32,000 bases of DNA from Edaphobacter aggregans (lineage in GTDB: Bacteria > Acidobacteriota > Terriglobia > Terriglobales > Acidobacteriaceae). Under the pieces are notes generated by a model. That model did no database searches. It saw only the letters and a program-made list of their open reading frames with translations, and was not told the DNA's origin. The stretch is from the NCBI RefSeq assembly GCF_003945235.1, contig NZ_RSDW01000001.1, positions 3,720,001-3,752,000 of the forward strand. Reading direction: 5' to 3'. The position numbers were made by a program, and so were the translations under genes. Shown one piece after another: positions 3,425-28,056 of this stretch; positions within the stretch are counted from its first letter, which is position 1; each line of letters begins with the position of its first letter.

Positions 3425-3425
3425 C

Positions 3426-3755
3426 TCATGCCTCCCGTAGAACGCGATTGATGGCTGCACTTACGGCTTGCCAGCGAGATTCTTCTGCGGATAGCTGCTT
3501 CTTTCCTGTTGCGGTTAGCTCGTACATGCGTGCGCGGCGGCCGGTGTCTTTCGTGATCCATTCGGCGCGAATCCAGCCGGCTTCTTCCATGCGATGGAGG
3601 GCCGGGTAGAGGGAGCCTTCTTCGGCGTTGAGGACGTCGCCGGATGTGTCGCGGATTGCGGACATGATGGCGTAGCCATGGGTGCATGGGCGGCGCGAGA
3701 GGATCTTCAATACAAGCAGATCGAGCGAGCCTTGGAGAGAGTCGGATCGTGGCAT
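3426..3755 (-). CDS. PadR-family transcriptional regulator
   Basis: 109 aa with the winged-helix signature LDLLVLKILSRRPCHGYAI...GSLYPALHRMEEAGWI and a C-terminal coiled helix. It sits directly upstream of, and is translationally adjacent to, the ADOP permease. Confidence 0.9.
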   Translation of the reverse strand: MPRSDSLQGSLDLLVLKILSRRPCTHGYAIMSAIRDTSGDVLNAEEGSLYPALHRMEEAGWIRAEWITKDTGRRARMYELTATGKKQLSAEESRWQAVSAAINRVLREA

Positions 3756-3826: not shown

Positions 3827-4408
3827 TTATTGTTTGTAAACGAGCGCTGGGCCGCTTACGCGCTTTCCATGGAGGTCGATATTTACTTCTACACGGTCGG
3901 CTATCTTGATGAAGGGGATGCCGCTGTTCATGCCGTAGTCCTTGCGGTCGAAGGCCATCGTTCCCGTGATAGCGCCTGAGCCAGTTCCCTTGCCGGAGAC
4001 GGTCAGGGTCAGGGTCTCGGGTTTAGAGACTCCGCGAATCGTAAAGGTACCCTGAACGTCAAAGGTGTCCGGGCCGGTCTGAACAACCTTTGTTGAGTGG
4101 AAGGTGATGAGGGGGTCATGTTCGACGTCGAAAAAGTCCTTGCTCTTCAGCTTGCCGTCCTTCATGCCGCTTCCGGTATTGACGGAGGCCGCCTGAATCT
4201 TGACGTCCAAGACGCCTGTTGTGACATCGGGTGAGGTGAAGGTGAGCGTGGCGGCCCACTTTTCGAAGGTGCCGGTCAGGTCGACCGAGGCCTTGACGTG
4301 GAACTTGATCGAGCTATCTTCCGGCGTAATTGTGAAGACAGGAGCCTGTGCCCGGCTCAATGGTGGCAGCACTGTGGATGCCACGAGGCAAAGAATGGCT
4401 AATCGCAT
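3827..4408 (-). CDS. YceI-family periplasmic (polyisoprenoid/lipid-binding) protein
   Basis: It has a Sec signal peptide (MRLAILCLVASTVLPPLSRAQA) followed by YceI-like beta-barrel sequence (IKFHVKASVDLTGTFEKW..., FDVEHDPLITFHS, GTFTIRGVSKP). I prefer the ATG at 4408. The longest ORF starts at a TTG at 4444 with no SD. Confidence 0.8.
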   Translation of the reverse strand: MRLAILCLVASTVLPPLSRAQAPVFTITPEDSSIKFHVKASVDLTGTFEKWAATLTFTSPDVTTGVLDVKIQAASVNTGSGMKDGKLKSKDFFDVEHDPLITFHSTKVVQTGPDTFDVQGTFTIRGVSKPETLTLTVSGKGTGSGAITGTMAFDRKDYGMNSGIPFIKIADRVEVNIDLHGKRVSGPALVYKQ

Positions 4409-4617
4409 GCCGCCGAGTGTCGGCTTTTCCGGCGTTGCTGTCAATTTCAGGATTATGGAAGGACAGGACGAGGTCTGACGGGGCGTCCCGATAGGCGTGG
4501 GGGAGTTAAGTTGAACAATCTAAACCGGGGGCAGCGATCTTCAATGCAGGTTCGAGAAATAGGCAGAATTTGTGACGAAGCTGTGGGATGATGATGCTGC
4601 AGTGAGGGTTAAGCACG

Positions 4618-5640
4618 ATGGCTGTTAGGTTGAAAGATATTGCACGGGATCTTGGGGTCTCGGTGGTGACCGTCTCGAAGGTGCTACGGGGGAATGCCGA
4701 TATTGGCGAGGCGACTCGGCGGCGCGTTCTGAAGAGGATGAAGGAGCTGAATTATCAGCCGAATATGATGGCTCGCGGGCTGGCTAGCGGGCGGACGTAT
4801 ACGGTGGGGTTGGTGGTGCCGGACCTGGTGCATCCGTTCTTTGCTGAGTTTGCGAAGTCGCTGGGCGGGGTACTGCGGACGAGTAAGCGGGCGCTGATTC
4901 TGGCTTCGTCGGAGGAAGACCCGGAGGTGGAGCGGCAGGAGATTCGTACGCTGCTGAGCCGGGGTGTGGATGTTCTGCTGATTGCATCGTGCCAGGCGAA
5001 TCTGCGGAATTTTTATGAGCTGGGGGATGACCGGACTCCTTACCTGTTGTTCGATCGAGATTTTCCGCATCTGGCGGCGCACTTTGTGGGCTCGGACAAT
5101 GTGCAGGTGGGTGAGATGGCGACGAAGCACCTGATCGAGATTGGGCGGACGCGGATTGCGCATATCGGCGGCAAGAATACGAGTCCAGCGTTCGATCGGT
5201 TGCGTGGGTATAAGAATGTTCTGGCGGAGAGTGGGCTTTCGGCGCCGGAGGACTATGTCGTGGTTCGAGAGCGTGTGGAAGAGGCGGGCGATGCGCTGGG
5301 GTTCGAGGCGATGCAGGAGCTGCTGAAGCTAAAGCCGCGGCCGGATGCGGTGTTCTGCTACAACGACCTGACGGCGCTGGGAGCGATGGACGCGACGTTG
5401 AAGGCTGGGCTGCGGGTTCCGGAGGATATTGCGTTTATCGGATGCGGGAATCTGCGGTATGCGAATTATCTGCGGGTTCCGCTGAGCTCGATCGACCATG
5501 GAACGGCGGAGCTGGGGCGGATTGCGGGGGAGTTTGCGCTGGAGCTATCGGCTAAGCCGGAGCAGGAGCCGAAGAGTATTCTTGTGCCGCCTACGCTGGT
5601 GGCGAGGGAGTCCACGGTGGGGGTTTCGGGTGGTAAGTGA
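4618..5640 (+). CDS. LacI-family transcriptional regulator
   Basis: The N-terminal HTH is VRLKDIARDLGVSVVTVSKVLRG...YQPN, followed by a periplasmic-binding-protein-like sugar-binding core. GAGGG lies 9 nt upstream of the ATG. Confidence 0.9.
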   Translation: MAVRLKDIARDLGVSVVTVSKVLRGNADIGEATRRRVLKRMKELNYQPNMMARGLASGRTYTVGLVVPDLVHPFFAEFAKSLGGVLRTSKRALILASSEEDPEVERQEIRTLLSRGVDVLLIASCQANLRNFYELGDDRTPYLLFDRDFPHLAAHFVGSDNVQVGEMATKHLIEIGRTRIAHIGGKNTSPAFDRLRGYKNVLAESGLSAPEDYVVVRERVEEAGDALGFEAMQELLKLKPRPDAVFCYNDLTALGAMDATLKAGLRVPEDIAFIGCGNLRYANYLRVPLSSIDHGTAELGRIAGEFALELSAKPEQEPKSILVPPTLVARESTVGVSGGK

Positions 5641-5645
5641 CGGTA

Positions 5646-7826
5646 ATGAATAAGCGATTTTTGAGTATCCTCGTCCTTCTTGCGGGGGTTGCTCCAGTGT
5701 TTGCGCAACAGGGACCGTACCCGTTTAAAGATCCTGCTCTGCCAGCGGAGAAGAGGATCGATAATCTTCTTTCGTTGATGACGTTCGATGAGAAGATCGA
5801 TTGTCTGGGGACGCGAACGGGTGTGCCTCGTCTTGGGGTTCCGAACTTTGGTAGTTCGGAGGGGATTCATGGGGTCGTTCAGCGAGAGAGCAGGCCCGGG
5901 CGTCCCATGATTACGACGACGCAATTTCCGCAACCTCCTGGTATGGGTGAGTCGTGGGACCCGGAGCTAGTGCGTGAGGCTGGTGGTGTGCAAGGGTACG
6001 AAGCGCGATTCATCACGCAGACGGAAAAGTACAACCGACAGATCCTGATGCTGTGGGGGCCGCAGGCGGATCTTGCGCGGGATCCGCGGTGGGGCAGGAG
6101 CGAAGAGGTCTATGGTGAGGATCCGTTCTTCAATGGAACGATGGTCGTTGCTTTTACAAAGGGGCTGCAAGGGGATGATCCGAAGTATTGGCAGTCGGCG
6201 GCGCTGCTGAAGCACTTTTTGGCGAACAGTAATGAGAACTTCCGGACTAGTTCGTCGTCGGACTTCGATCAGCGACTTTTTTGGGAGTACTACTCGGTTC
6301 CGTTTCGCATGGGCTTTCTGGAGGGCGGTGCGAAAGGTGTGATGGCGTCGTACAACGCCTGGAATGGGACTCCGATGGCTATCAATCCCATTCTCAAGAG
6401 CATTGTTCAGAAGGAGTGGGGCGTCGATGTGCTCTCGAGCGACGGCGGTGCGGTGAAGTTGCTGGTTACTTCGCATAAGCGTTTTGCGAATCAGCAACAA
6501 GCCGTGGTGGCTTGTTTGAAGGCTGGCATTAATCAGTTTCTCGATACGTATAAGGATGAGACGAAGGCGGCGGTGAAGGATGGATTGGTGTCCGAGCGAG
6601 AGATTGATGATCTGCTGCGGCCCAAGTTCAGAGTAACGATTCGGCTGGGATTGCTTGATCCGCCGGAGATGGTTCCTTACGCGAAGATCAAGGATGAGCC
6701 TGAGCCCTGGAACACGGAGAAGGACAAGGCGGTTTCGGAGAAGATGGCGCTTGAGTCGGTTGTGTTGCTCAAGAACGCTAATTCGTTTTTGCCGTTGAAG
6801 AAGGATTCGATTAAGTCGATTGCGGTTATCGGGCCGCTTGCTGATTCGATTCACTGGGACTGGTATGGCGGTACGCCTCCGCATGCGATTACTCCGCTGC
6901 AGGGAATCAAGGATGAAGTGGGGCCGGGGGTTACGGTGAAGTATGCCGCCGATGAGATCGGCAATGCTGCGGTGAATGCGGCGAAGACGTCCGATGTGGC
7001 AGTTGTTGTGGTGGGCAATGATCCGACGTGTGGTCCGGATATGCCGCATGATTGGTATAACTCTGCCGATGGCGGTGGAACGCTGCCGTGCACTGTGCCC
7101 AGCGATGGACGTGAAGGGCGTGATCGCGAGAGTATCACTTTGGCGCAGGAACAGCTGGTCAAGCAGGTGTACGCCGTCAATCCGAAGACCGTGGTGATCC
7201 TGGTCTCGAGCTTTCCGTTTGCGATTAATTGGTCGCAGGCTAATGTTCCGGCGATTTTGCATATGGCGCACTCTTCGCAGGACGAGGGGACGGCGCTGGC
7301 TAAGGTTCTCTTTGGCGGTTACAACCCCGGTGGGCGATTAGTGACGACTTGGCCGAAGTCGGTGGAGCAATTGCCGCCGATGATGGACTACGACGTTCGC
7401 CATGGCCGTACGTATATGTACTTCAAGGGTGATCCGCTTTATCCATTTGGTTATGGCTTGAGTTATACGACCTTCGGTTACTCGAATTTGAAGACGAGTT
7501 CCAAAGAGTTGGCGAGTGACGGAAGCGTTACGGTCAGCGTAGATGTGACGAACACAGGTAGCCAGACGGGCGATGAAGTGGTGCAGCTTTATGTGAAGCA
7601 TCCGAAGTCGAAGGTCGAGCGGCCGGGTGAAGAGCTCAAGGGTTTCCAGCGCGTTACGTTGAAACCGAACGAGACGAAGACGGTGCAGATTCCGCTGAAA
7701 GCGTCGACGCTCGCTTACTGGGACGAGAAGCAGGGACGATTCAAGGTCGAAGCGGAACCGGTAAGCGTGATGGTCGGAAGCTCTTCGAAGGACATCAAGC
7801 TGACCACGGAAGTCCGTGTTCCATAG
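5646..7826 (+). CDS. Secreted glycoside hydrolase family 3 (beta-glucosidase/beta-xylosidase-like) with C-terminal Fn3-like domain
   Basis: Signal peptide MNKRFLSILVLLAGVAPVFAQ. GH3 motifs are GPQADLARDPRWGR, LKHFLANS, and an SD-containing nucleophile region VLSSDGGAV. The C-terminal sequence GDEVVQLYV is typical of the Fn3-like domain. It starts 5 nt after the lacI-type gene stop; an alternative GTG at 5637 would overlap that stop. Confidence 0.9.
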   Translation: MNKRFLSILVLLAGVAPVFAQQGPYPFKDPALPAEKRIDNLLSLMTFDEKIDCLGTRTGVPRLGVPNFGSSEGIHGVVQRESRPGRPMITTTQFPQPPGMGESWDPELVREAGGVQGYEARFITQTEKYNRQILMLWGPQADLARDPRWGRSEEVYGEDPFFNGTMVVAFTKGLQGDDPKYWQSAALLKHFLANSNENFRTSSSSDFDQRLFWEYYSVPFRMGFLEGGAKGVMASYNAWNGTPMAINPILKSIVQKEWGVDVLSSDGGAVKLLVTSHKRFANQQQAVVACLKAGINQFLDTYKDETKAAVKDGLVSEREIDDLLRPKFRVTIRLGLLDPPEMVPYAKIKDEPEPWNTEKDKAVSEKMALESVVLLKNANSFLPLKKDSIKSIAVIGPLADSIHWDWYGGTPPHAITPLQGIKDEVGPGVTVKYAADEIGNAAVNAAKTSDVAVVVVGNDPTCGPDMPHDWYNSADGGGTLPCTVPSDGREGRDRESITLAQEQLVKQVYAVNPKTVVILVSSFPFAINWSQANVPAILHMAHSSQDEGTALAKVLFGGYNPGGRLVTTWPKSVEQLPPMMDYDVRHGRTYMYFKGDPLYPFGYGLSYTTFGYSNLKTSSKELASDGSVTVSVDVTNTGSQTGDEVVQLYVKHPKSKVERPGEELKGFQRVTLKPNETKTVQIPLKASTLAYWDEKQGRFKVEAEPVSVMVGSSSKDIKLTTEVRVP

Positions 7827-8334: not shown

Positions 8335-8877
8335 CTACTTGACTCCTTTAGCTGGGTCCCAGACGCCCTGGAGCTTGCGTACGTAGATGATCTGGCCGGT
8401 GTGGTAGGCGTTGTGAGTACCGATGCGGGCTATGGTGGGGGCCCAGAGCTCAAGCTTCTTGTCGTCAGCGGCTTCGATTGCCTTCTCCCATTCGGTGAGG
8501 ACTTTGTCGAGCTGCTGGACGGTGGTGGCCCATTGGGCGGCGTCGAAGTTGTTGAAGGTCTCGTCGTTGTTACCGCTGAATTTAGGCGGCTTCTCGCCTT
8601 TGAAGCGGGTCAGCGCTTCGGTGTTCCAGAAGAGGAGATGATTGGCGAGCTGGCCTACGGAGTGGTTACCGGGGCCGGGGGTCCATTTGGCCTGATCGGC
8701 GGTGAGGCCCTGGACGGCGATGTTGACGGGGACGAACCAGTCTTCCTTGTCGTGGGTGGTGTGTAGTTGATCGAGGAGGATGCTTCGGAGGGTGGGTGGG
8801 GTCTTGGGGGGTGGCGGGTCTTGCGCGTAGACCTGCATGGTGAGCGAGAGCAGAAAGGCGAGGGCGATTGGCTTCAT
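8335..8877 (-). CDS. DinB-family protein with Sec signal peptide
   Basis: Signal peptide MKPIALAFLLSLTMQVYAQD. A DinB-like His triad context is present (VGQLANHLLFW, GTHNAYHTGQIIYV). Confidence 0.75.
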   Translation of the reverse strand: MKPIALAFLLSLTMQVYAQDPPPPKTPPTLRSILLDQLHTTHDKEDWFVPVNIAVQGLTADQAKWTPGPGNHSVGQLANHLLFWNTEALTRFKGEKPPKFSGNNDETFNNFDAAQWATTVQQLDKVLTEWEKAIEAADDKKLELWAPTIARIGTHNAYHTGQIIYVRKLQGVWDPAKGVK

Positions 8878-9088: not shown

Positions 9089-9118
9089 TTGCCATGGGAG
9101 ATTCGCAGATCCTATATT
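9089..9118 (+). promoter_or_regulatory. Sigma70-like promoter for the MIOX gene
   Basis: TTGCCA (9089-9094), an 18-nt spacer, then TATATT (9113-9118). The predicted start site falls at the left edge of the palindrome at 9124-9141. Confidence 0.5.
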
Positions 9119-9123
9119 AGTTC

Positions 9124-9141
9124 AACGTTAGCGGTAACGTT
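9124..9141. promoter_or_regulatory. Operator-like palindrome, site 1 (AACGTTA-GCGG-TAACGTT)
   Basis: Perfect 7-bp inverted arms around GCGG. It shares 16/20 positions, including the contiguous 12-mer ACGTTAGCGGTA, with the site at 11090-11109. It lies between the -10 box and the SD (GGAGGGA) of MIOX. Confidence 0.65.
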
Positions 9142-9175
9142 AAACTTGCAGAGCGTTTCTCCGGAGGGAGATCAC

Positions 9176-10036
9176 ATGGCGACCATACCTGTTTCGAGCA
9201 ATGCTCCACTGAAAGATCTTGATGAGTGGGATGACTTTTTAACCGGGCGCTACCAGGAAGGCAAGAGCGAGAGTGAGTTCCGTCAGTATGACGAGAAGGC
9301 GACGCCGGGCGTCGCGGAGTTCTATCGGCTGAATCACCAGTTCCAGACGTTCGACTATGTGATGGCGAAGGAGAAGGAGTACTTCGGGCTGAACAAAGGC
9401 GAGAAGAGCATCTGGGAAGCGGCGGAGTTTTTGAACACGCTGGTGGACGACAGCGATCCTGATACAGACCTGACACAGATTGAGCATCTGCTGCAGACTT
9501 CGGAGGCGATCCGGAAGGATGGACATCCGCGTTGGTTTGTATTGACGGGATTCATTCATGATCTTGGCAAGGTGCTTTGCCTTTGGGGCGAGCCACAGTG
9601 GGGCGTGGTGGGCGATACGTTTCCTGTGGGCTGCGCTTACTCGAAGGACATTGTGTTTCCGGAGTACTTTGCGGCGAACCCGGATATTAAGAATCCGCTG
9701 TATCAGACGAAGTATGGCGTGTATGAGCCGAACTGCGGGCTCGACAAGGTGCATATGTCGTTTGGGCATGACGGCTACATCGGCGAGGTGATGAAGAAGT
9801 ACATGCCGGAGGAGTCACTGTACATGCTGCGGTATCACTCGTTTTATTCGGCGCATCGGCATGGAGCTTACAGGCACTTGATGAATGATCATGACGTCGA
9901 GATGCTGGAGTGGGTGAATAAGTTCAATGTGTATGACCTGTACTCGAAGGGGCATACGAAGCCGAATGTGAAAGAGCTGAAGCCTTACTACGACGATCTG
10001 TTCGCGGAGTTTTTCCCGGAGAAGATTGCCTGGTAG
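9176..10036 (+). CDS. myo-inositol oxygenase (MIOX, di-iron HD-domain enzyme)
   Basis: 286 aa, colinear with animal MIOX as I recall it: [65 protein letters not shown], terminal W. All His/Asp iron-ligand positions appear present. The SD GGAGGGA lies 6 nt before the ATG at 9176. Confidence 0.9.
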
Positions 10037-10059
10037 GTGGCGTATAGCGAAGGATCATG

Positions 10060-10097
10060 GCCCTGGGTGCGGTTTTTCGGCTCAGGGCTTTGCTTTG
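10060..10097 (+). terminator. Candidate intrinsic terminator/attenuator between MIOX and the IolB-like gene
   Basis: Stem GCCCTGGG (10060-10067) pairs with CTCAGGGC (10081-10088) with one G-U pair. The loop is 13 nt and the tail is TTTGCTTTG. It lies 24 nt after the MIOX stop. Confidence 0.5.
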
Positions 10098-10120
10098 CGA
10101 CGATTTGTTATTGAAGAGGC

Positions 10121-10894
10121 ATGATGTCGGAACGATTGGTGCGGGATACGGCGAGTCAGATGGGCCGCCACATTTCTATTCGACCCGGGAGTAGCTCGAT
10201 GCGTGAGGTTAGCTATGGGCGGATACGGCTGGGCGGTGCGCAGAAGGAAGTGAGCTTTGCAAATGAAGGGCAGGAGACGGGACTGATCTGTGTGCAGGGT
10301 GAGGGCGTGGTGCTGGCTGGCGGTGAGCGCTTTGTGATGACTCCACAGGATGCGCTGTATGTGCCGAAGGGGACTTTGATTACAGTGCAGACGGATGGGG
10401 AGGTGGATCTGGTGGAGTGCTCGGCTCCTGTAGATGGGGAGTATCCATTGCAGTTTGTCTCAGTGGAGGATGTGCGGGCGGATGAGAAGCTGCACTTCGT
10501 TGCTGGCTCGGCGGGTGCGCATCGCGAGATCAATATTTTGCTGGGGAGCAATATTCAAGCGGGGAGGTTGGTGGCTGGGGTGACGCGGTCGCTGCCAGGG
10601 AACTGGACGAGCTGGCCTCCGCATGAGCATGCAGCGATGCTGGAGGAGATTTACGTGTACATCGATATGCCGGCGCCGAGCTTTGGGCTGCAATTGGTGT
10701 ATACCGGCGAGATCAGTCCGGCTGAGGTGGAGGTAGTGCGCGAAGGCGATGCAGTTCTTTTACCGGAGGGTTATCACCCGAACGTTGCGATTCCAGGAGG
10801 GACGCTGAATTTCGTGTGGATCATGGCTGCGCATCGCGAGGTGGTGGACCGGAAGTGGGGAGTGGTTCAGGTGGATCGGCGATACGCTTCGTGA
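10121..10894 (+). CDS. iolB: IolB/KduI-family cupin isomerase (5-deoxy-glucuronate isomerase-like)
   Basis: 257 aa. GNWTSWPPHEHAAMLEEIYVY and LLPEGYHPNVAIPGGTLNFVWIMAA match the IolB signature regions as I remember them (GxWSSYPPHKHD...EE.YY and GYHP...PGY..Y.LW.MAG). Confidence 0.75.
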   Translation: MMSERLVRDTASQMGRHISIRPGSSSMREVSYGRIRLGGAQKEVSFANEGQETGLICVQGEGVVLAGGERFVMTPQDALYVPKGTLITVQTDGEVDLVECSAPVDGEYPLQFVSVEDVRADEKLHFVAGSAGAHREINILLGSNIQAGRLVAGVTRSLPGNWTSWPPHEHAAMLEEIYVYIDMPAPSFGLQLVYTGEISPAEVEVVREGDAVLLPEGYHPNVAIPGGTLNFVWIMAAHREVVDRKWGVVQVDRRYAS

Positions 10895-10907
10895 TCGATT
10901 TCTAGCT

Positions 10908-10925
10908 AAAGTTACCGCTTAATTT
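10908..10925. promoter_or_regulatory. Degenerate third copy (half-site) of the operator motif
   Basis: AAAGTTACCGCTTAATTT. Its reverse complement carries AGCGGTAAC, identical to the core and right arm of site 1, but the other arm is degenerate. It lies 14 nt after the IolB-like stop. Confidence 0.35.
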
Positions 10926-11089
10926 ACCTGTGGTTTACATGAGGACTGCAAAATAACACCCACGCAGACATTCTTCCTGAGCAACATCACAGGAGATGTT
11001 CTGCGCGATGATTTCCGTTTGCGCTACATGTACTATAAATAGGATGTAAATACTTATTTTTCATGTATTTATGAATGCACTAGCTGTGT

Positions 11090-11109
11090 TTACGTTAGCG
11101 GTACCGTAA
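11090..11109. promoter_or_regulatory. Operator-like palindrome, site 2 (TTACGTTAGCGGTACCGTAA)
   Basis: Self-complementary at 16/20 positions and identical at 16/20 to the 20-mer around site 1 (CAACGTTAGCGGTAACGTTA). It ends 10 nt upstream of the -35 box of the TonB-receptor promoter candidate. Confidence 0.6.
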
Positions 11110-11119
11110 TGGATTTTGC

Positions 11120-11148
11120 TTGACAGTGCTTCGTGGCGTGGGTAAGGT
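11120..11148 (+). promoter_or_regulatory. Sigma70-like promoter candidate for the TonB-dependent receptor operon
   Basis: TTGACA (11120-11125), a 17-nt spacer, then TAAGGT (11143-11148). It is preceded by a very AT-rich stretch that could act as an UP element. Confidence 0.4.
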
Positions 11149-11235
11149 TTCGCCGTCCGCAGAAATTACTAATCGTACGACGCTAATTCTCTTGCGGGAA
11201 CTAGCGCCGTTTGGGTGCAGTAATCAACCATCTGG

Positions 11236-11263
11236 CAACAAGGATCACGACAACAAGAATCAC
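11236..11263 (+). repeat. Tandem CA-rich direct repeat in the 5' leader, abutting the SD of the TonB-dependent receptor gene
   Basis: CAACAAGGATCAC (11236-11248) and CAACAAGAATCAC (11251-11263) match at 12/13 with a 15-nt period. The second copy contains AACAAGAA, which fits AAnAAnAA. The SD AGAGG follows at 11264-11268. Confidence 0.7.
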
Positions 11264-11273
11264 AGAGGCAATT

Positions 11274-14200
11274 ATGCGAACTATTCCGAAAAGAATGTTG
11301 AAGGTGGAAGGCCATTTTGGAGCATCGGCATGGCTGAGTCTGGCGTTGACGCTGCTACTGCTGTTTCCGGCGTTGAGCGCCTATGGACAGTTTGAGTCGG
11401 CATCCGTGCTTGGGTATGCGAAGGATTCGTCGGGTGCGGCGATTCCGGGCGCTACGATCACGCTGACCAATATTGCGACCAGCATCTCGCAGACGACGAA
11501 GGCCGATGGCGAGGGGCGGTATGAGTTTCCGAGTGTGCCAATCGGCGAGTACAAGGTCGTCGCAGAGGCTTCAGGTTTTGAAAAAGTGCAGACGCAGAAC
11601 TTCACAGTAACGACGAATGCGCGGCAACGCGTGGATGTTGCGATGAAGACGGGATCCGTTTCGGAGACAGTAACGGTGACGGCTGCCGCGGCTGTGCTGG
11701 AGACGGAGACGAGCTCTCGCGGTCAGGTAGTTGGTATGCGAGAGATTCAGAATCTTCCGCTGAATGGCCGGTCTTACGCCGACCTGGCGTTGCTGGCTCC
11801 GGGCGTGCGCAAATCCTTTTTGCAGAATCAAAGCACGACGAGTCGTGAGGCGTCTTTCAACGTCAATGGCCAGCGCAGCGCCTTCAATAACTTCCTGTTG
11901 GATGGTTTGGATAACAATTCTTATGGAACGTCGAACCAGGGTTTTGCCAATGAGAATATTCCGCCATCGCCGGATGCAGTTTCAGAGTTTCGGCTGGAGA
12001 CGAACAACTACAGCGCGGAGTATGGCCGCGCATCGGGTGCGGTGATCAATGCCAGCATTCGGCGCGGCGGCAATCAGTTCCATGGGGGTGCGTGGGACTA
12101 CAACCGGAACACAGTATTCAATGCCATCGGGCCGTTCCCACCTACTTCGGGTCAGAAGCCAGCGTTCATCCGCAATCAGTTCGGTGGAACGTTCGGCGGG
12201 CCGATCTGGCGTGACCATACGTTCTTCTTTGCGGACTATGAGGGCACGAGGCAGATCGCACTGTCGTTTGGAACTGCAACTTTGCCGACAGCGGAACAGC
12301 GTGCGGGAACGTTCCTGCTGCATGCTGCCAATGGGACAACAACGCCGATTCCGCTGCAAAATCCCATCACCGGAAAGATTTACGCTAACGGCATTATTCC
12401 GGCGAGCGATCAGACTCCGTTCGCCAGGGCTGTTATGGCTGCTTTGCCAGGTACAACGAATGGGGCTGCACTCAATACTTCGGCTGCCTATGCGAACAAC
12501 TTCTCGGCGTTTCCGCGCGGCACGATCAATGATGATAAGGGTGACATCCGTATCGATCACACCTTCAGTCAGAAGCTGAGCGTTTTTGGTGTGTACAGCC
12601 AACACCAGACGACCATCTTCGATCCGCCTACATTTGGCGGTCCGGCCGGTGGCAACGCCAATTCCAATGTGCATATCTACAACCGGCAAATTGCGTTTGG
12701 TACGACATACGTCATTACACCGTCGTCGCTGTTGGATTTCCGCATGGGTATCGGTCATAACGAGGGCGGCAAATCGCCTTATGGCGTCGGTCAGCCAAGC
12801 CTGCTCACGCAAAATGGCATCACGAACGGCATTCCGACGGATCCGCTTATTGTCCGCAGCCTGAACGCACAGAGCGTTTCGGGTTTCGCGCAATTCGGAG
12901 CTCAGCCGGCCAGCCCGCAGTTCCAGAATCCTTCGGTCATCAATCCCAAGGCAAACTACACCTTGGTTCATGGAATCCACTCGATGAAGGTCGGCTATGA
13001 GTATCAGGCGATCAACACGCAGATCAACGATTACAACCCGAGCTACGGTCAGGACAATTACGGCGGGGCCTATTCCACTGTTCCAAACTGCACTACTCCT
13101 CCGGCCGCACCTGTAACACCATGCGCAACTAATCCGACCGATGCGTTTTCGCAACTCTCGCAGGCTCGTAATCTGGCGGACTTTCTTTTTGGGAATCGCA
13201 ACTCGTATTCGTTGACGAATTTCTTTATCGCCTCGGTGCGTCAGAGGATGAACTTCATGTACTTCCAGGACGACATCAAGGTGAGGTCAAACCTGACGGT
13301 CAACGCCGGCCTGCGCTATGAGCTGGCAACGCCGCAGTATGAGGCGAACAACAAGCTTGCCAACTTTGATCCTTCTACGAAGACGCTGATTCAGGCTAAG
13401 GATGGTTCAATCTACGACAGAGCTTTGGTAAACATGGCATTGAACAATTTTGCGCCACGCTTTGGCTTTGCTTATAGCGTGACGCCGAATACGGTTATTC
13501 GTTCCGGCTATGGCATCAGCTATACCCAGTACAACCGCGCCGGTGGAGAAAATAATCTGACCTACAACGGGCCTAATGTTGTGAATGCAACTATCAACAA
13601 CGCATCGCCATCGCCCGCAAGCCTTTGCCTCAACGACACGCAGGACCAGACAAAATGCTTCCGTCAGACACAGCAGGGTTACTCGGTGACGCTGACGGCT
13701 CCGTCGGCATTCAATCCGGCACTTGTGACGTCGCGCTATATACCGAAGGACACGAGGACCGGTTACGTGCAGAGCTACCACTTGTCTGTGCAGCAGCAGT
13801 TGCGGGGCGGGCTCGTTATGGATTTCGCGTATGTGGGCAATACTGGCCGGCATCTGCAGATTCTTGCCGACTATAACCAGGCGAATCCTTGCACCGCGGC
13901 GCTGGCTTCTCAGTGCCCTGGTTCCACGCTGGCAGCACGCCGTCCCATACCTACCTTTGGCGATATCGAAATTGCTTACGGTGGTGGACCCTCCAACTAC
14001 AACTCATTGCAGTTCAAGGTTGAAAAGCGCTACGGGAATGGTTTGTATCTGCTCAACTCGTTCACGTACGGTCGCGCTTTTGACTTGTCGTCGGGGCATC
14101 TTGAGACGAGCAACGGTGATAATTCTCGCGTGAATTTTGCTAACCCTGCGGGTGACTATGGCCGGTCGGGCTATGATCAGCCGCTCAACAACACCACTTC

Positions 14201-14768
14201 GATTATTTACGACCTGCCTTATGGAAAGGGACGTCGCTTTGGAAGCAGCGCTCCATATCTTATGAACGCGCTTCTTGGTGGATGGCAGCTGACCGTTATC
14301 AATAATATGAACAGCGGTCTGCCGGTAAACCTCAACTACACGAACAGCACGTCGAACGGGACGAATGTCACGGATCTGTATACGTACAGGCCCAACGTGA
14401 CGGGTAATCCCGTGGCTCCTGCTGCGAATCGAGTGAAGACGGCGACTGCACTGACTGGTTGGCTGCTGAAGTCGACTGGTGCAGGGGTTCCCGGCGTCTC
14501 TGTTCCGACTGGCGGCAGTCCATTCGGCAATGCACAGCGGAACATGGTTGTCTCTCCGGCGTTCTACCAGACGGATCTAGGCTTGCATAAGGCGTTTCCG
14601 CTATGGAGAGAGGGATCGACCTTTGACTTCCGTTGTGAGGCGTTCAATATCCTCAACAAGGTCAACTACCAGGCACCAGACGGCAATATCAGCAACTCAA
14701 CCTTCGGGGCTATCAGCTCTGCTTACCCTGCACGACAGCTTCAGCTTGCAGCCAAGGTGTTCTTCTAA
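11274..14768 (+). CDS. TonB-dependent outer-membrane receptor with N-terminal CarboxypepD_reg-like domain
   Basis: Signal peptide (...LLLLFPALSAYGQ), then a carboxypeptidase-regulatory-like Ig domain (GYAKDSSGAAIPGATITLTNIATS...DGEGRYEFPSVPIGEYKV). The plug carries NLPLNGRSYADLALLAPGV. A long beta-barrel follows and ends in the aromatic residues ...LAAKVFF. I prefer the ATG at 11274 (SD AGAGG 5 nt upstream) over the ORF-track start at 11211. Confidence 0.85.
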   Translation: MRTIPKRMLKVEGHFGASAWLSLALTLLLLFPALSAYGQFESASVLGYAKDSSGAAIPGATITLTNIATSISQTTKADGEGRYEFPSVPIGEYKVVAEASGFEKVQTQNFTVTTNARQRVDVAMKTGSVSETVTVTAAAAVLETETSSRGQVVGMREIQNLPLNGRSYADLALLAPGVRKSFLQNQSTTSREASFNVNGQRSAFNNFLLDGLDNNSYGTSNQGFANENIPPSPDAVSEFRLETNNYSAEYGRASGAVINASIRRGGNQFHGGAWDYNRNTVFNAIGPFPPTSGQKPAFIRNQFGGTFGGPIWRDHTFFFADYEGTRQIALSFGTATLPTAEQRAGTFLLHAANGTTTPIPLQNPITGKIYANGIIPASDQTPFARAVMAALPGTTNGAALNTSAAYANNFSAFPRGTINDDKGDIRIDHTFSQKLSVFGVYSQHQTTIFDPPTFGGPAGGNANSNVHIYNRQIAFGTTYVITPSSLLDFRMGIGHNEGGKSPYGVGQPSLLTQNGITNGIPTDPLIVRSLNAQSVSGFAQFGAQPASPQFQNPSVINPKANYTLVHGIHSMKVGYEYQAINTQINDYNPSYGQDNYGGAYSTVPNCTTPPAAPVTPCATNPTDAFSQLSQARNLADFLFGNRNSYSLTNFFIASVRQRMNFMYFQDDIKVRSNLTVNAGLRYELATPQYEANNKLANFDPSTKTLIQAKDGSIYDRALVNMALNNFAPRFGFAYSVTPNTVIRSGYGISYTQYNRAGGENNLTYNGPNVVNATINNASPSPASLCLNDTQDQTKCFRQTQQGYSVTLTAPSAFNPALVTSRYIPKDTRTGYVQSYHLSVQQQLRGGLVMDFAYVGNTGRHLQILADYNQANPCTAALASQCPGSTLAARRPIPTFGDIEIAYGGGPSNYNSLQFKVEKRYGNGLYLLNSFTYGRAFDLSSGHLETSNGDNSRVNFANPAGDYGRSGYDQPLNNTTSIIYDLPYGKGRRFGSSAPYLMNALLGGWQLTVINNMNSGLPVNLNYTNSTSNGTNVTDLYTYRPNVTGNPVAPAANRVKTATALTGWLLKSTGAGVPGVSVPTGGSPFGNAQRNMVVSPAFYQTDLGLHKAFPLWREGSTFDFRCEAFNILNKVNYQAPDGNISNSTFGAISSAYPARQLQLAAKVFF

Positions 14769-14795
14769 AGCAGGCTATTCAATAAACTGAAAGAC

Positions 14796-14830
14796 CTGCG
14801 GCGCCGATTCCACTGCGAACGGCGCCGCAG
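14796..14830 (+). terminator. Strong GC hairpin without U-tract between the receptor and the phosphoesterase gene (partial terminator or processing/stability element)
   Basis: Perfect 11-bp stem CTGCGGCGCCG (14796-14806) / CGGCGCCGCAG (14820-14830) with a 13-nt loop. It is followed by CAACAAGCGG, with no T run. Confidence 0.4.
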
Positions 14831-14872
14831 CAACAAGCGGAACGCAGTTTCGTTGAAGGATGGGATACGGTT

Positions 14873-15814
14873 TTGAAGATTGATCGGCGTACATTTGCTC
14901 TTAGCGGGGCGGCAGCCCTGGGAACACTTTGGACTCCTCGCATATGGAGTGAGGTGGCACAGACTGCATCTCCTACCCGCTTTCACTTCGCGGTGGTGAG
15001 CGATACACATATCATCGACGACTACTACCAAAAAGGTACTGAGAATGGTGTCGAGGATAATGAGAGCATCCTTCGCACGACGGAACGCCTGGTTTCTGCG
15101 AGGACGTTGATCAACTCGCTGCGGCCTAAGATCGAGAAGGTTTTTGTTCCGGGTGACTGCTTCCACAATTACCCGTCGGCTGACTACGATTTTTATTTCA
15201 AGAACCGCACGCGGATTGATATTGCGAAGGAGCTGTTTGATGGCTTCGAGATGCCGGTGCATCTTGGATTCGGCAACCATGACTATGATGTTCCTCGTGT
15301 GTCGCGCGAGATGTCGCATAGATTGTTTGCCGAGAAGTTGAAGGCTAAGCCATACTCGTCGGTTGACTACAAGGGATTTCGGTTTGTGCATCTGAACAAC
15401 TTTATGGGTGCGACGTGGGATAAGAGTTCCGATCAGTTCAATAAAGGGTTGGGTTCGCTGGGTGTGGAGCAATTGAACTGGTTTGAAGGACAATTGCAAG
15501 ATCGAAAGCCCACGGTAGTTTTCATTCACTATCCGCTTTGGATTGTGGTGCCGACCGAGGTGAAGGATTACGGCTTGCATCCGTTGCTCTACAAATACCG
15601 GGATAGTATTCAGCTTGTGGCTGCCGGGCACTGGCATAAGTGGGTGGATTTTGCGCATACTTATGGGCCGCAGCATTATGTGACTGCGGCTACGCGATAC
15701 GATCCCAATGCGTATATGTTGTTTGAGGCGGATAGTAAGAAGCAGACGCTTCGGTGGATGAATGAGGATCTGGTGCAATGGTCGACGCATTATGCCAAGC
15801 CTTACAAAGGCTAA
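14873..15814 (+). CDS. Calcineurin-like metallophosphoesterase with twin-arginine (Tat) signal
   Basis: All five MPE motifs are present: VVSDTH, PGDCFHN, GNHDYD, IHYP and AAGHWHKW. The N-terminus KIDRRTFALSGAAALG fits the Tat consensus. It starts at TTG 14873, with GAAGGA 12 nt upstream. Confidence 0.8.
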   Translation: MKIDRRTFALSGAAALGTLWTPRIWSEVAQTASPTRFHFAVVSDTHIIDDYYQKGTENGVEDNESILRTTERLVSARTLINSLRPKIEKVFVPGDCFHNYPSADYDFYFKNRTRIDIAKELFDGFEMPVHLGFGNHDYDVPRVSREMSHRLFAEKLKAKPYSSVDYKGFRFVHLNNFMGATWDKSSDQFNKGLGSLGVEQLNWFEGQLQDRKPTVVFIHYPLWIVVPTEVKDYGLHPLLYKYRDSIQLVAAGHWHKWVDFAHTYGPQHYVTAATRYDPNAYMLFEADSKKQTLRWMNEDLVQWSTHYAKPYKG

Positions 15815-15850
15815 TACTAGAAATCAGATAAGAGAGGCTGCAACCTTTTT

Positions 15851-16999
15851 ATGAATAGAGACAATGTGGTGCGGATTTTTTGGGCGGCAGCTTTGCTTGT
15901 ATCGGGTGGGCTGGTTTGGGCGCAGACGACAACGACTGCTGAACAGGACAAGATTGTGCGCATCAATCAGATTCAGGTGATTGGGTCGCACAATAGCTAC
16001 CATGCTGGGTTTGCTCCGAGTGAGCGAAAGTACATGGAAGCGAAGAGTCCTAAGGGATTGCGGAGTCTTGACTATCATCATGCTCCGCTGGCGGATCAGC
16101 TTTCGGGTGGGGTGCGGCAGATCGAGATCGATATCTTTGCCGATAGCAAGGGCGGACGATTTGCTCATCCAGCCATCGTGCGGCAAGTGGCGGCGGCGGG
16201 ATTGCCAGCTGATCCGGACTTTGATCCTCAGCACGAGATGGACAAGCCGGGGTTCAAGGTAATGCACATGCAGGATCTGGATGAGCGGAGTACGTGCCAC
16301 ACGTTTGTGGCTTGTCTGACGGCTGTGCGGACTTGGTCGAAGCAGCACCCGCGGCATCTGCCGATTTTTATTTTGGTGGAGACGAAGGAAGGCCCTATGC
16401 GCGAGTTGCCTAACGCGGTGGAGACGGAGCCGTTTACTTCTGCTGTGTTCGATGCGATGGATGCCGAGATTCGGTCGGTGTTCAGGGCAGACGAGATGAT
16501 TACTCCGGATGAGGTTCGCGGTAGTGCGGCGACGCTGAATGAGGCTGTAAGAGCGGGTGGATGGCCGACGCTGGAGAAGGCGCGGGGGCGCGTGATCTTT
16601 CTGATGGATCAGCAGCATGTGGGGCCGGTTTATCGCGAGGGGCATCCTTCTCTGCGCGGACGCGTCCTGTTTACTAATGCCGAGCCTGGTGCGGCGGACG
16701 CGGCGTTCATCGAGCAGAACGATGGATCACGTGAAGCGATCGGTGCGCTGGTGAAGCAAGGGTATCTGGTGCGGACGCGTACGGACGAGGGGACGGAACA
16801 GGCTCGTACAAACGACACGACGCGGAGAGACCTTGCCCTCTCAAGTGGAGCTCAGTTGATCAGTACGGATTATCCTTCGTCGGAGCCGTCGCCGTGGACT
16901 TCGTATTTTGTTGGGCTGCCCGGTGGAGTGGTGGCTCGGTGCAATCCGGTGAATAAACCTGTTGGTTGCGACGACAGGTTGCTGGAACCTTCGCACTAA
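15851..16999 (+). CDS. Secreted PLC-like phosphodiesterase (Ca2+-dependent PI-PLC-like family)
   Basis: Sec signal MNRDNVVRIFWAAALLVSGGLVWAQ. IQVIGSHNSYH..., RQIEIDIFAD and ILVETKEG resemble the bacterial Ca-dependent phosphoinositide phospholipase C family (PF16670) as I recall it. The family call was not verified by search. Confidence 0.6.
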   Translation: MNRDNVVRIFWAAALLVSGGLVWAQTTTTAEQDKIVRINQIQVIGSHNSYHAGFAPSERKYMEAKSPKGLRSLDYHHAPLADQLSGGVRQIEIDIFADSKGGRFAHPAIVRQVAAAGLPADPDFDPQHEMDKPGFKVMHMQDLDERSTCHTFVACLTAVRTWSKQHPRHLPIFILVETKEGPMRELPNAVETEPFTSAVFDAMDAEIRSVFRADEMITPDEVRGSAATLNEAVRAGGWPTLEKARGRVIFLMDQQHVGPVYREGHPSLRGRVLFTNAEPGAADAAFIEQNDGSREAIGALVKQGYLVRTRTDEGTEQARTNDTTRRDLALSSGAQLISTDYPSSEPSPWTSYFVGLPGGVVARCNPVNKPVGCDDRLLEPSH

Positions 17000-17011
17000 A
17001 TGTATTGCAAC

Positions 17012-17512
17012 TCAGCAGACTACGCGGCGAAGCTTTTCGAGCGAGGCGCGCCATGTCACTTCGTGCCATCGACGATCGCTGTTATCGATAAACCCTGCGT
17101 GAGAGAGATGCAGTGAAGTTGATGATCGTGTCCGGTTGAGATCGATGATGACGGTCGTCTCAGAAGTGAGAACAGGCTGCTTAGCCCAGGTGAAAGCTAC
17201 CTCATATGGCTCCCGGGTGAGATAGGCGGTGCGTATTTTGAGGCTGGGATATCTTCGATGTGCGAAAGTGAGATTGATATCGAAGCCCTTTTGCGTTTGC
17301 GAGACTGCTACACCGCGGAATGGGTCACAGCCCGGGAAACATAGCCATGCCTCGAGGTATTCGGCGATGGTTAGAGCATTGAAGATACGGCGACTATCTG
17401 CCGGTATTTTTACTGAGACTTCGACCCGATGTTGTGTGAAGTTCTGATGTATTGAGAGAACTCTTTGCGTCACGGCCTGCATGGTCATAGGAAAAACCTG
17501 CTTATGCTTCAT
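17012..17512 (-). CDS. SRPBCC/AHSA1-like (START-fold) small protein
   Basis: VEVSVKIPADSRRIFNALTIAEYLEAWL..., the length and the C-terminal W...LEKLRRVV resemble Aha1/SRPBCC ligand-binding domain proteins. The start is uncertain (ATG 17512, ATG 17488/17482 or TTG 17542), and none has a clear SD. Confidence 0.5.
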   Translation of the reverse strand: MKHKQVFPMTMQAVTQRVLSIHQNFTQHRVEVSVKIPADSRRIFNALTIAEYLEAWLCFPGCDPFRGVAVSQTQKGFDINLTFAHRRYPSLKIRTAYLTREPYEVAFTWAKQPVLTSETTVIIDLNRTRSSTSLHLSHAGFIDNSDRRWHEVTWRASLEKLRRVVC

Positions 17513-17551
17513 AGAGGGTATGCAGCCATGTTTATAGCTCAAGAGGGTTAT

Positions 17552-17567
17552 GTGACAGAGTGACAGT
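17552..17567. repeat. Tandem octamer GTGACAGA-GTGACAGT, with further GTGAT/GTGAC copies at 17575-17584
   Basis: Read directly. It lies immediately upstream of the SRPBCC gene and downstream of the LytTR regulator gene. Confidence 0.6.
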
Positions 17568-17819
17568 TGAGGGTGTGATGTGACGCAACTTTTGGTTGAG
17601 TGGCACTGCGGCGAGACGGTCTACCCAGCAGAGGAAGAGGGCTTCGCGCGGATTTCACAGATTTCCATATTCGTTGAGAAACGCGGATTCGGATTTATGG
17701 AACGAACTGTTAGCCGTCCTATGCAGTGACGAATAGGACTGCACGCAGGGCGAGCCGTTGGGGGATGGCGATGGGAAGCCTGAAGGCACGAAGCGGCTTC
17801 CAGATTTTGAAAGGCTGCG

Positions 17820-27977: not shown

Positions 27978-28056
27978 TCTGTGATCCCTCAGGCAGAGGC
28001 ACAGTGCTGTGACGCACCGCACCTCCTCGTGGATTGAGTATTCAGCTTACGACGGA

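Follow-up and report, generated by a model that had tools for sequence, protein, structure and literature searches.

A candidate LacI-controlled locus for inositol and inositol-phosphodiester headgroups in Edaphobacter aggregans

The only characterized bacterial system for the import of inositol-lipid headgroups, that of Flavobacterium, dates from 2026 and has been framed purely as phosphorus acquisition. In F. johnsoniae, PUSI is induced by phosphate starvation and comprises a SusCD-like transporter beside PF16670 and PF00149 proteins (Lidbury et al. 2020, PMC8115612). When phosphatidylinositol or glycerophosphoinositol is the phosphorus source, growth depends on Pus1 and the transporter; the structure of the PusCD1 transporter holds bound inositol-1-phosphate, and the Pus1 phosphoesterase is structurally like the acid-sphingomyelinase-type glycosylinositol phosphorylceramide phospholipase C (GIPC-PLC) of Botrytis; the preprint makes no mention of myo-inositol oxygenase (MIOX) or of Acidobacteria (Connolly et al. 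2026, bioRxiv 10.64898/2026.09.03.749221). A bacterial MIOX is encoded in Francisella TX07-7308 together with uxaC, uxuA, uxuB, kdgK, kdgA and a sugar symporter (PMC3479022). Here we analyze 32 kb of Edaphobacter aggregans DNA (contig NZ_RSDW01000001.1, positions 3,720,001 to 3,752,000; hereafter the window), in which five consecutive forward-strand genes within positions 9089-16999 encode a MIOX, a KduI/IolB cupin, a TonB-dependent receptor, a metallophosphoesterase (MPE) and a protein of the phosphatidylinositol-specific phospholipase C (PI-PLC) family (hereafter PLC). We posit, with a probability of roughly 0.6, that they belong to a substrate-inducible catabolic locus for inositol and for the inositol-phosphodiester headgroups of eukaryotic and microbial membrane lipids, governed by one LacI repressor; phosphatidylinositol and glycerophosphoinositol are its likely substrates, and glycosylated inositol-phospholipids are probably used as well. 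Because the importer and the enzymes resemble the phosphatidylinositol-harvesting system of Flavobacterium, the bacterium probably feeds on inositol headgroups taken from the membrane lipids of plants and fungi.

Inositol lipids, including phosphatidylinositol, plant and fungal GIPCs and glycosylphosphatidylinositol (GPI) anchors, constitute a large and poorly traced pool of soil carbon and phosphorus. Acidobacteriaceae rank with the most abundant bacteria in soil; what they live on is largely obscure. The locus described here suggests that the enzyme and transporter logic of Flavobacterium recurs in another phylum without a SusD partner, that it is wired to sugar-type (LacI) control, and that a eukaryote-like MIOX links it to oxidative inositol catabolism. 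The analysis further provides a defined operator, along with candidates for an inositol-responsive repressor and for a new glucuronate isomerase; Tunturiibacter lichenicola, Granulicella and Edaphobacter are among the cultivated hosts. T. lichenicola carries no more than the MIOX core, and strains such as Granulicella paludicola and Edaphobacter modestus combine MIOX with receptor and PLC.

Gene families encoded by the locus

Gene families were called by Pfam profile search of the window's open reading frames (ORFs), and the comparative set comprised 80 MIOX-anchored loci from species-representative genomes, all Acidobacteriaceae-like and with MIOX proteins 74-98% identical. For every one of the five genes, Pfam agrees with the domain identity given in a preliminary description of the stretch (PF05153, PF04962, receptor domains, PF00149 and PF16670). 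MIOX (9176-10036, forward strand; 286 aa, cytoplasmic) matches PF05153 over profile positions 4-249 of 249 (E = 1.1e-103; 346.6 bits against a cut-off of 25). Its maximal ORF spans 9089-10036, and since homologues are 286 aa long, the real start is almost certainly the ATG at 9176, which lies behind a GGAGG. In the alignment with mouse MIOX (2HUO; E = 2.9e-73), the first histidine and the HDLGK, GHD, HSFY and DLY motifs correspond; following the mouse structure, we take these to be the di-iron ligands (His, His-Asp, His, His, Asp) together with the substrate lysine of HDLGK. Its family membership predicts that the enzyme converts myo-inositol to D-glucuronate.

The cupin gene (10121-10894, forward strand) belongs to PF04962 (E = 5.1e-36; 124.8 bits, cut-off 23.9) and scores below both NCBIfam equivalog cut-offs, that for IolB (TIGR04378; 98.8 against 205) and that for KduI (NF002091; 57 against 250), so it is assigned to the PF04962 superfamily only; its best match among solved structures, 2QJV, is annotated as an "uncharacterized IolB-like protein." Because the score falls under the IolB cut-off, its substrate is probably not 5-deoxyglucuronate. 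The clustered cupin orthologues, from 13 loci, all lie in the forward-strand block after MIOX, and directly after MIOX wherever the order is listed. From this adjacency and from chemical analogy one may speculate that the cupin is a uronate aldose-ketose isomerase converting D-glucuronate to D-fructuronate. At the opposite end of the locus, and outside the coordinates of the preliminary description, the window edge cuts a PF06800 (Sugar_transport/EamA-like) inner-membrane permease gene, whose 3' end (1-449, forward strand) is retained: tblastn of the permeases that precede LacI-MIOX in three related loci (L004, L005 and L006) matches window positions 3-446 at 78-80% identity, and positions 3-449 hold the last 148 codons. 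The orthologue in L005 is a PF06800 protein (E = 1.4e-13). In related genomes this 428-aa permease usually stands directly 5' of LacI-MIOX, and in 38 of the 80 loci it is present in the forward-strand block 5' of MIOX, which makes it a candidate inositol importer.

Two of the remaining products appear to be exported phosphodiesterases. PLC (15851-16999, forward strand), a predicted Sec-exported, Ca2+-dependent phosphodiesterase of the PI-PLC family, matches PF16670 over its whole length (profile positions 1-329 of 329; E = 4.5e-140; 466.8 bits, cut-off 29.9); it has a Sec-type signal, and residues G45, S46, H47, N48, S49, Y50 and H51 (GSHNSYH) are invariant in 23 homologues. The S-H-N-S/T-Y motif is presumably catalytic, as in PLC X-domains. 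Among solved structures, its sequence matches only two, 3H4W from Streptomyces antibioticus and 5FYO from Pseudomonas, both characterized Ca2+-dependent PI-PLCs; a Foldseek search with a low-confidence model returns the same two at E ~1e-10, with the next match at 3e-3, in agreement with Pfam but not as independent proof. By analogy with these enzymes, we propose that PLC frees inositol phosphate from phosphatidylinositol-type lipids.

The second enzyme, MPE (14873-15814, forward strand), is a calcineurin-like metallophosphoesterase (PF00149; E = 1.6e-9; 38.9 bits, cut-off 21.5) with predicted export by the twin-arginine translocation (Tat) pathway. The twin-arginine signal was judged by motif and conservation: the N terminus, MKIDRRTFAL, is followed by a hydrophobic stretch, and R5, R6 and F8 are invariant in 27 homologues, as are the metal-motif residues D44, H46, G94, D95, G134, N135, H136, D137, H219, G252, H253 and H255. 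A phmmer search against solved structures gave noise alone (E of at least 0.047). The AlphaFold2 (AF2) model, with a predicted local distance difference test (pLDDT) score of 77, has as its top Foldseek matches GpdQ (E = 1.7e-9), SMPDL3A, SMPDL3B and acid sphingomyelinase (to 1e-7), at TM-scores of only 0.5-0.61 and identities of only 14-18%. Because these structural neighbors are phosphodiesterases acting on lipid headgroups, MPE looks like a second phosphodiesterase, of GpdQ/acid-sphingomyelinase type, and not like a monoesterase; we propose that it acts in the periplasm on glycerophosphoinositol or on sphingolipid or glycolipid inositol-phosphate diesters. The preliminary description had cast MPE as the dephosphorylating enzyme, an assignment that a predicted fold closest to the diesterases GpdQ, SMPDL3A/B and acid sphingomyelinase does not favor; if MPE is indeed a diesterase, the step from inositol phosphate to inositol would be left without an assigned enzyme.

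The same description had linked the locus to phytate and the inositol phosphates of soil. Some purple acid phosphatases, which are metallophosphoesterases, act on phytate, and anionic organophosphates can be taken up by TonB-dependent receptors, but these are general facts, and the genes scanned with Pfam, in the window and in the related loci, contain no histidine acid, beta-propeller or protein tyrosine phosphatase (PTP)-like phosphatase domain and no purple acid phosphatase N-terminal domain. MPE is nearest to diesterases, and the genes associated with it encode PI-PLC, glycerol catabolism enzymes and glycosidases, neighbors that point to lipid headgroups and inositol glycans. Use of phytate or inositol polyphosphates is therefore a very improbable purpose of the locus, and for want of any phytase-type domain among the scanned genes we reject it.

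The receptor gene (11274-14768, forward strand) encodes a TonB-dependent outer-membrane protein with CarboxypepD_reg (PF13620), Plug (PF07715; 26.4 bits, cut-off 23.9) and OMP_b-brl_4 (PF25183; 739.8 bits, E = 6e-222) domains. The maximal ORF opens at 11211, translation most likely begins at the ATG at 11274, and the N-terminal hydrophobic leader ends in ALSAYGQ. No SusD/RagB domain was found in any neighbor scanned with Pfam, and the gene that follows the receptor is MPE. By analogy with PusCD1, the receptor is proposed to import inositol phosphate, glycerophosphoinositol or an inositol-phosphoglycan.

Operators, regulator and transcription units

Palindromes of the GTTASCGSTAAC type stand before both the MIOX gene and the receptor gene. 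The first operator, O1, is ACGTTAGCGGTAACGT at 9125-9140 (site 9123-9142) with the core GTTAGCGGTAAC at 9127-9138, and the second, O2, is ACGTTAGCGGTACCGT at 11092-11107 (site 11090-11109, TTACGTTAGCGGTACCGTAA); they are the only matches with at most three mismatches in the window. The preliminary description had already pointed to this shared palindrome, and shuffled sequences bear it out: two sites are observed against 0.12 expected, and none of 100 shuffles reaches the observed count. O1 lies just 3' of the -10 box of a sigma-70-like MIOX promoter (9089-9118, forward strand; TTGCCA, an 18-nt spacer and TATATT; promoter scan 10/12), about 35-50 nt 5' of the MIOX ATG. Its core is an imperfect palindrome, GTTAGC followed by GGTAAC with a central CG, and scores 28.3 bits. 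LacI-family operators usually take this form, a near-palindrome around a central CG. The same layout, TTGCCA, ~17 nt, TATAGT and then GTTASCGSTAAC, recurs 5' of MIOX in nearly all of the 80 loci; the exact core is present at the MIOX promoter in 60 of them, and across the 1.49 Mb of loci the exact 12-mer was counted 63 times, as opposed to 0-2 times in shuffles.

A weight matrix was built from the MIOX-promoter operators and then scanned over the window and the other loci. Three window sites reach at least 10 bits: that at 9123 (28.3 bits), a weak operator-like site, AAAGTTACCGCTTAATTT, at 10907-10926 (14.6 bits), just 3' of the IolB stop codon and an inverted-repeat partner of O1, and that at 11090 (23.5 bits). 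The last, O2, stands about 165-185 nt 5' of the receptor ATG and represents a second class of operator, intergenic and 5' of the receptor orthologue, that is found in at least 16 other loci, mostly 130-220 nt from the ORF start; these receptor-leader copies are degenerate relative to GTTASCGSTAAC, and the alignment of the leaders retains ACGTTAnCGGTnnCGTAA in nearly all loci. In the related loci the matrix also finds a third class, 5' of the permease gene. A separate conserved element, (A)GTTTGCGCTA, was seen ~70 nt 5' of O2 (window 11013-11033) and in L001, L008, L030, L033 and L057; given its likeness to an operator half-site, it may serve as an auxiliary operator or for looping.

Because it is conserved at the MIOX and receptor promoters across loci, the shared operator is a conserved regulon signature and not a coincidence, and the regulon predicted from the operator classes comprises the permease, MIOX (with the IolB-like gene where present) and the receptor unit. 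The opposite view, that five unrelated genes happen to be neighbors and that the palindrome is coincidental, can appeal to variable synteny and to one close relative that lacks four of the genes; it is scarcely credible, since dozens of species retain the operator at two promoters, with at least 30-fold enrichment over shuffles, and since MIOX is repeatedly followed by orthologues of the receptor, PLC and MPE. Chance adjacency is effectively refuted by these two observations.

The candidate regulator is a LacI-family repressor gene (4618-5640, forward strand; PF00356 helix-turn-helix, 58.1 bits; PF13377 or Peripla_BP_3, 115.9 bits) that the preliminary description did not include. Its orthologues stand directly 5' of MIOX in most of the 80 loci and are 57-97% identical across loci, 80-97% in closer relatives; in the window and in L001 and L003, GH3 and divergent DinB-like genes separate LacI from MIOX. 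The presence of LacI in a locus is associated with the exact operator (52/5/8/13; Fisher p = 4e-6, shared ancestry not corrected for), and the five LacI loci that lack the exact operator have one-mismatch variants. We propose that this LacI protein binds the GTTASCGSTAAC operators. Operator conservation and LacI linkage are observed directly; binding would follow from them, and the effector, for which inositol is a candidate, is a matter of speculation.

The spacing of the genes, with an operator inside the longest gap, indicates at least two transcription units and not a single operon. MIOX and the IolB-like gene are 84 nt apart, and the gap holds a hairpin followed by a U-rich tract (UUUGCUUUG; 10059-10098, forward strand). 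The fold of 10037-10120 (-28.7 kcal/mol, z = -1.8) provides weak evidence that the hairpin may act as a partial terminator or attenuator; a simple terminator scan found nothing convincing between the genes and did not call this hairpin either. The 379-nt gap between the IolB-like gene and the receptor holds O2, and since Rfam and tRNA scans of the whole window are empty, no known riboswitch lies within the long receptor leader. Receptor and MPE are separated by 104 nt, and MPE and PLC by 36 nt. The former spacer (14769-14872, forward strand) is GC-rich and strongly structured, with an 11-bp inverted repeat, CTGCGGCGCCG (14797-14807) and CGGCGCCGCAG (14820-14830), and folds at -37.9 kcal/mol (z = -3.0; 0 of 200 shuffles fold as well). 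It contains no T-run, and may be an RNA processing or stability element.

Conservation and modular makeup across related genomes

Gene content was counted, without correction for shared ancestry, in the forward-strand block after MIOX of the 68 loci with at least 7 kb of sequence 3' of MIOX. A receptor orthologue follows MIOX in 29 of these loci, PLC in 26, receptor and PLC together in 24, the IolB-like cupin in 11 and the metallophosphoesterase in 10, and all five genes stand in the window's order in four (L001, L027, L029 and L030). The preliminary description had viewed the five genes as one unit and had suggested a check of neighborhood conservation; that check, carried out here, reveals modules instead. 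Receptors found after MIOX are 60-92% identical to that of the window, those beside MPE in loci without MIOX 53-54%, and unrelated receptors 25-30%. One relative, L003, has a MIOX 97% identical and the same flanks and lacks the equivalent of window positions 10049-17819 (compare L003 10875-11953), which points to a recent gain or loss of the IolB-receptor-MPE-PLC block. A metagenome contig of the Joint Genome Institute (L085) has essentially the same sequence as the window.

Parts of the block also occur apart from MIOX. Silvibacterium bohemicum has a receptor-MPE pair with a 26-nt gap, and Granulicella aggregans has the same pair plus PLC. A second set of loci was anchored on PLC in metagenome contigs: where PLC reaches 72% identity or more and upstream sequence extends for at least 5 kb, eight of eight contigs carry MIOX, and in a distant PLC clade (55-66% identical) many contigs have receptor-(MPE)-PLC and no MIOX. 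In this distant clade a LacI homologue (57-60%) flanks the module in nine contigs (L111, L115, L138, L142-L144, L152, L154 and L162), and six of the LacI-linked contigs (L138, L142, L143, L152, L154 and L162) have the variant palindrome ACGTAAGCGCTAACGT 5' of the receptor; because the distant clade combines LacI and a variant palindrome without MIOX, LacI control of the receptor-MPE-PLC module predates its fusion to MIOX. Two parts make up the mosaic locus: a LacI-MIOX core, with the permease and sometimes the IolB-like gene, and a mobile receptor-MPE-PLC module.

The same S. bohemicum locus (L081, 15206-19427) has a separate pair of receptor and glycerophosphodiester phosphodiesterase (GDPD) genes ~5 kb from the receptor-MPE pair, and modules of a receptor plus a periplasmic phosphodiesterase may be a general acidobacterial theme. 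Four loci (L038, 8898-9887; L044, L051 and L052) carry a gene for a metallo-beta-lactamase-fold protein directly 5' of MIOX, together with receptor and PLC and no MPE; the metallo-beta-lactamase-fold gene may be a non-orthologous replacement of the diesterase.

A mobile module raises the question of what it is for. It could serve mainly for phosphorus scavenging, as Pus1 does, with MIOX disposing of leftover inositol or adjoining for unrelated reasons. The homologous F. johnsoniae set is induced by phosphate depletion and needed on phosphatidylinositol or glycerophosphoinositol as phosphorus source, receptor-MPE(-PLC) occurs without MIOX in Silvibacterium, G. aggregans and many metagenome contigs, and Silvibacterium has the parallel receptor-GDPD pair nearby. 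We nevertheless consider this purpose unlikely, because the receptor unit shares a conserved LacI-type operator with MIOX, and even the loci without MIOX have a LacI homologue and a palindrome, with no obvious two-component Pho arrangement. LacI regulators are typical of sugar catabolism. Gains of carbon and of phosphorus, moreover, are not mutually exclusive.

Neighboring genes in related loci bear on the nature of the substrate. Nine genes for glycoside hydrolase (GH) family 92 alpha-mannosidases lie in blocks co-directional with LacI-MIOX. A GH89 alpha-N-acetylglucosaminidase gene adjoins an HGSNAT homologue inside five LacI-MIOX blocks (L006, 15655-19102; L025, L042, L050 and L066), and in these loci GH89 is always paired with the HGSNAT homologue, a multi-pass membrane protein (PF07786; E = 3e-22 to human HGSNAT, 8VKJ). 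GH2 with GH1, and GH127, are found in other LacI-MIOX blocks. The glpK-glpD-glpF genes lie 5' of permease-LacI-MIOX in L004 (3308-7140) and L006, a placement that fits a substrate derived from glycerophospholipids; genes of glycerol catabolism (glpK, glpD and glpF) also adjoin the permease-LacI-MIOX block in L050, L032 and L034. The window itself has neither GH89 nor HGSNAT and only a generic GH3. This secreted GH3 beta-glycosidase (5637-7826, forward strand; GH3 N and C domains plus an Fn3-like domain) overlaps the LacI stop codon at its start (ATGA) and is for that reason probably co-transcribed with LacI; its nearest solved structures are beta-xylosidases and beta-glucosidases, an assignment no narrower than this generic class. 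GH3 stands here in no loci other than the window, L001, L003 and L085; it is an accessory glycosidase specific to that lineage.

Such neighbors could be taken to mean that the locus primarily takes free inositol or non-phosphorylated inositol glycosides as substrates and that the phosphodiesterases are accessory or serve something unrelated: the conserved core is only permease-LacI-MIOX, 39 of the 68 loci have no receptor, and glycoside hydrolase neighbors (GH3, GH92, GH89, GH2, GH1 and GH127) are frequent. This seems quite unlikely to us, because PLC is, next to the receptor, the most frequent downstream partner (26 of 68), the close-clade PLC always occurs with MIOX, PF16670 enzymes of known activity are specific for inositol phosphodiesters, and GH92, GH89 and HGSNAT fit the phospho-inositol glycans of GIPCs or GPI anchors at least equally well. 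GIPCs of fungi and plants, GPI anchors and phosphatidylinositol mannosides carry alpha-mannose and alpha-glucosamine or its N-acetyl form on their inositol or on glucuronate linked to it. The recurrence of GH92 and of GH89 with HGSNAT in the blocks suggests that the related loci, as a family, target glycosylated inositol-phospholipid headgroups; for the locus in the window, we infer the same.

Taken further, the loci could be inositol-glycan utilization loci that dismantle the headgroups of the plant and fungal membrane glycolipids that are most abundant, namely GIPCs, GPI anchors and phosphatidylinositol mannosides, a possibility that we hold tentatively and with considerable doubt. In such a scheme, the PI-PLC and the acid-sphingomyelinase/GpdQ-like diesterase would cut the headgroup off the lipid and the dedicated TonB receptor would import it; GH92 would remove alpha-mannose, and GH89 with the lysosome-like HGSNAT acetyltransferase would remove alpha-glucosamine, the window having GH3 instead. 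MIOX would then turn the freed inositol into glucuronate, a uronate also present in plant GIPC headgroups, and a new glucuronate isomerase of the KduI/IolB family would feed central metabolism. If true, the loci would be a carbon-catabolic counterpart of Flavobacterium Pus1 under an inositol-responsive LacI regulon.

Several features of the surroundings are recorded for completeness. Between the 3' end of the permease gene and LacI, the window has an FtsX-type gene (785-3460, reverse strand) and a YceI gene (3827-4444, reverse strand). Between GH3 and MIOX it has a gene for a DinB_2-family protein with a signal peptide (8335-8877, reverse strand; PF12867, E = 1.1e-13), whose transcription leads away from the MIOX promoter region; it occupies the same position in L001-L003, L017, L043, L049 and L057 and lies at most 1.5 kb from MIOX in L038, L052 and L060. 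The protein is mycothiol-S-transferase-like and is encoded at or near this position in ~10 related loci; export is unusual for a DinB protein, and glucosamine-inositol is a constituent of mycothiol. Farther 3', a second CarboxypepD_reg TonB receptor (28057-31077, reverse strand) is followed by a 1038-aa TolB-propeller/amidohydrolase fusion (24906-28022, reverse strand), a pair that recurs on the opposite strand just 3' of MIOX in L031 and L056. Six acidobacterial-type MIOX loci (L007, L040, L046, L070, L076 and L077; 77-93% identical) are in metagenome-assembled genomes (MAGs) labeled Planctomycetaceae, Rhodanobacteraceae, Sphingomonas, Novosphingobium, Janthinobacterium and Vulcanimicrobiota, labels that probably reflect binning contamination rather than gene transfer. 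Directly 3' of MIOX in a Terriglobus MAG stands a gene for the large subunit of a phage terminase (L061, 11713-13965), so a prophage adjoins that locus.

Proposed route and comparison with known systems

We posit the following route for a substrate-inducible inositol headgroup locus. With no inducer present, LacI on O1, 3' of the MIOX -10 box, and on O2, 5' of the receptor, would repress two transcription units. PLC and the Tat-exported MPE would cleave inositol-phosphate diesters into a headgroup part, inositol phosphate or an inositol-phosphoglycan, and a remainder of diacylglycerol, ceramide or glycerol phosphate; the sequences make the families and export signals of these enzymes evident, and their substrates are extrapolated from homologues and from Flavobacterium Pus1. 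The TonB-dependent receptor would carry the water-soluble headgroup over the outer membrane, as orthologue linkage and the PusCD1 precedent suggest, with the order of cleavage and import and the cellular location of PLC being speculative. A separate phosphatase, to which no gene is assigned, would free myo-inositol, the PF06800-type permease would import it, MIOX would oxidize it to D-glucuronate, and the KduI/IolB-like cupin would convert glucuronate to fructuronate, for entry into the mannonate/2-keto-3-deoxygluconate (KDG) route. The glycosidases would differ by lineage, with GH3 in the window and GH92, GH89 plus the HGSNAT homologue, GH2, GH1 or GH127 elsewhere. The three-compartment route of the preliminary description thus survives in its headgroup release, TonB uptake, MIOX ring cleavage and shared operator, which find support in orthologue linkage, the operators and the Pus1 precedent, and loses its dephosphorylation step.

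Several points weigh against this route. All functions of the locus are deduced from sequence, and its acidobacterial members are known from genes alone. PLC is distant from both characterized PF16670 enzymes (E = 3e-10 over ~110 residues, the central third), and its AF2 model is poor (pLDDT 57.8). The window encodes no inositol-phosphate monoesterase and no enzyme of the glucuronate pathway beyond the putative isomerase. The full five-gene order is limited to four of 68 loci, MIOX loci without a receptor outnumber those with one, and many PLC genes of the distant clade have neither receptor nor MIOX nearby. Finally, the homologous Flavobacterium module serves phosphorus acquisition under Pho control, and the purpose here may likewise be phosphorus.

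A literature search for MIOX in connection with Acidobacteria, TonB receptors or phytate found nothing relevant; a Rhodanobacter paper that mentions MIOX was set aside since it concerns a plant gene. The closest parallels to individual parts of the locus are found in five other settings. Like the iol operon of the Bacillus subtilis type, the locus would combine inducible inositol catabolism with a dedicated repressor and an IolB-family cupin, but IolG, IolE, IolD, IolC and IolJ are not found here and the ring would be opened by an oxygenase. The Francisella cluster likewise has MIOX beside a transporter and glucuronate-processing enzymes, implying a path from inositol through glucuronate to KDG, whereas the window lacks UxaC, UxuAB and KdgKA and has the KduI/IolB-like cupin after MIOX instead; the Francisella cluster, for its part, has no outer-membrane receptor and no phosphodiesterases. 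Lysosomal NAGLU and HGSNAT constitute the route for terminal alpha-glucosamine, and the GH89-HGSNAT pair of the five related loci resembles them in an acetylate-then-cleave logic; these loci differ in being bacterial (periplasm and inner membrane) and in their presumed substrate, an alpha-glucosamine inositol glycan and not heparan sulfate. The PI-PLCs of known structure (3H4W/3H4X and 5FYO) belong to the same Pfam family as the window enzyme, which is about 40-80 residues longer. GpdQ of Enterobacter aerogenes and the acid-sphingomyelinase-like enzymes, including Botrytis GIPC-PLC1 (PMC11496612), share a binuclear fold and metal-ligand motifs with MPE, in which the saposin domain and the C-terminal domain that acid sphingomyelinase has are missing.

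The nearest system as a whole is Pus1, comprising PusCD1, PI-PLC1 (Fjoh_4172) and the phosphoesterase Fjoh_4173. In both, a TonB transporter gene adjoins PF16670 and PF00149 genes whose products carry export signals, and the acid-sphingomyelinase-type likeness of the Pus1 phosphoesterase matches the SMPDL3A and acid sphingomyelinase hits of MPE; the likeness to Fjoh_4172 and Fjoh_4173 is drawn from families, gene order and descriptions, not from sequence orthology. The logic proposed for Pus1, headgroup import plus periplasmic phosphodiester cleavage, is the one on which the window module is compared here, and in its outer half the locus may function as Pus1 does. With no SusD-like gene, however, it does not belong among PusCD systems: in place of a transporter with a SusD-like surface lipoprotein, it has a receptor of the CarboxypepD_reg/OMP_b-brl_4 type common in Acidobacteria. 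Its phosphoesterase carries a Tat signal in contrast to the Sec export of the Pus1 enzyme, and a LacI repressor with a palindromic operator stands where Pus1 responds to phosphate limitation and has an extracytoplasmic function (ECF) sigma/anti-sigma pair. The module here is also joined to MIOX, and this fusion implies that the carbon of inositol is consumed.

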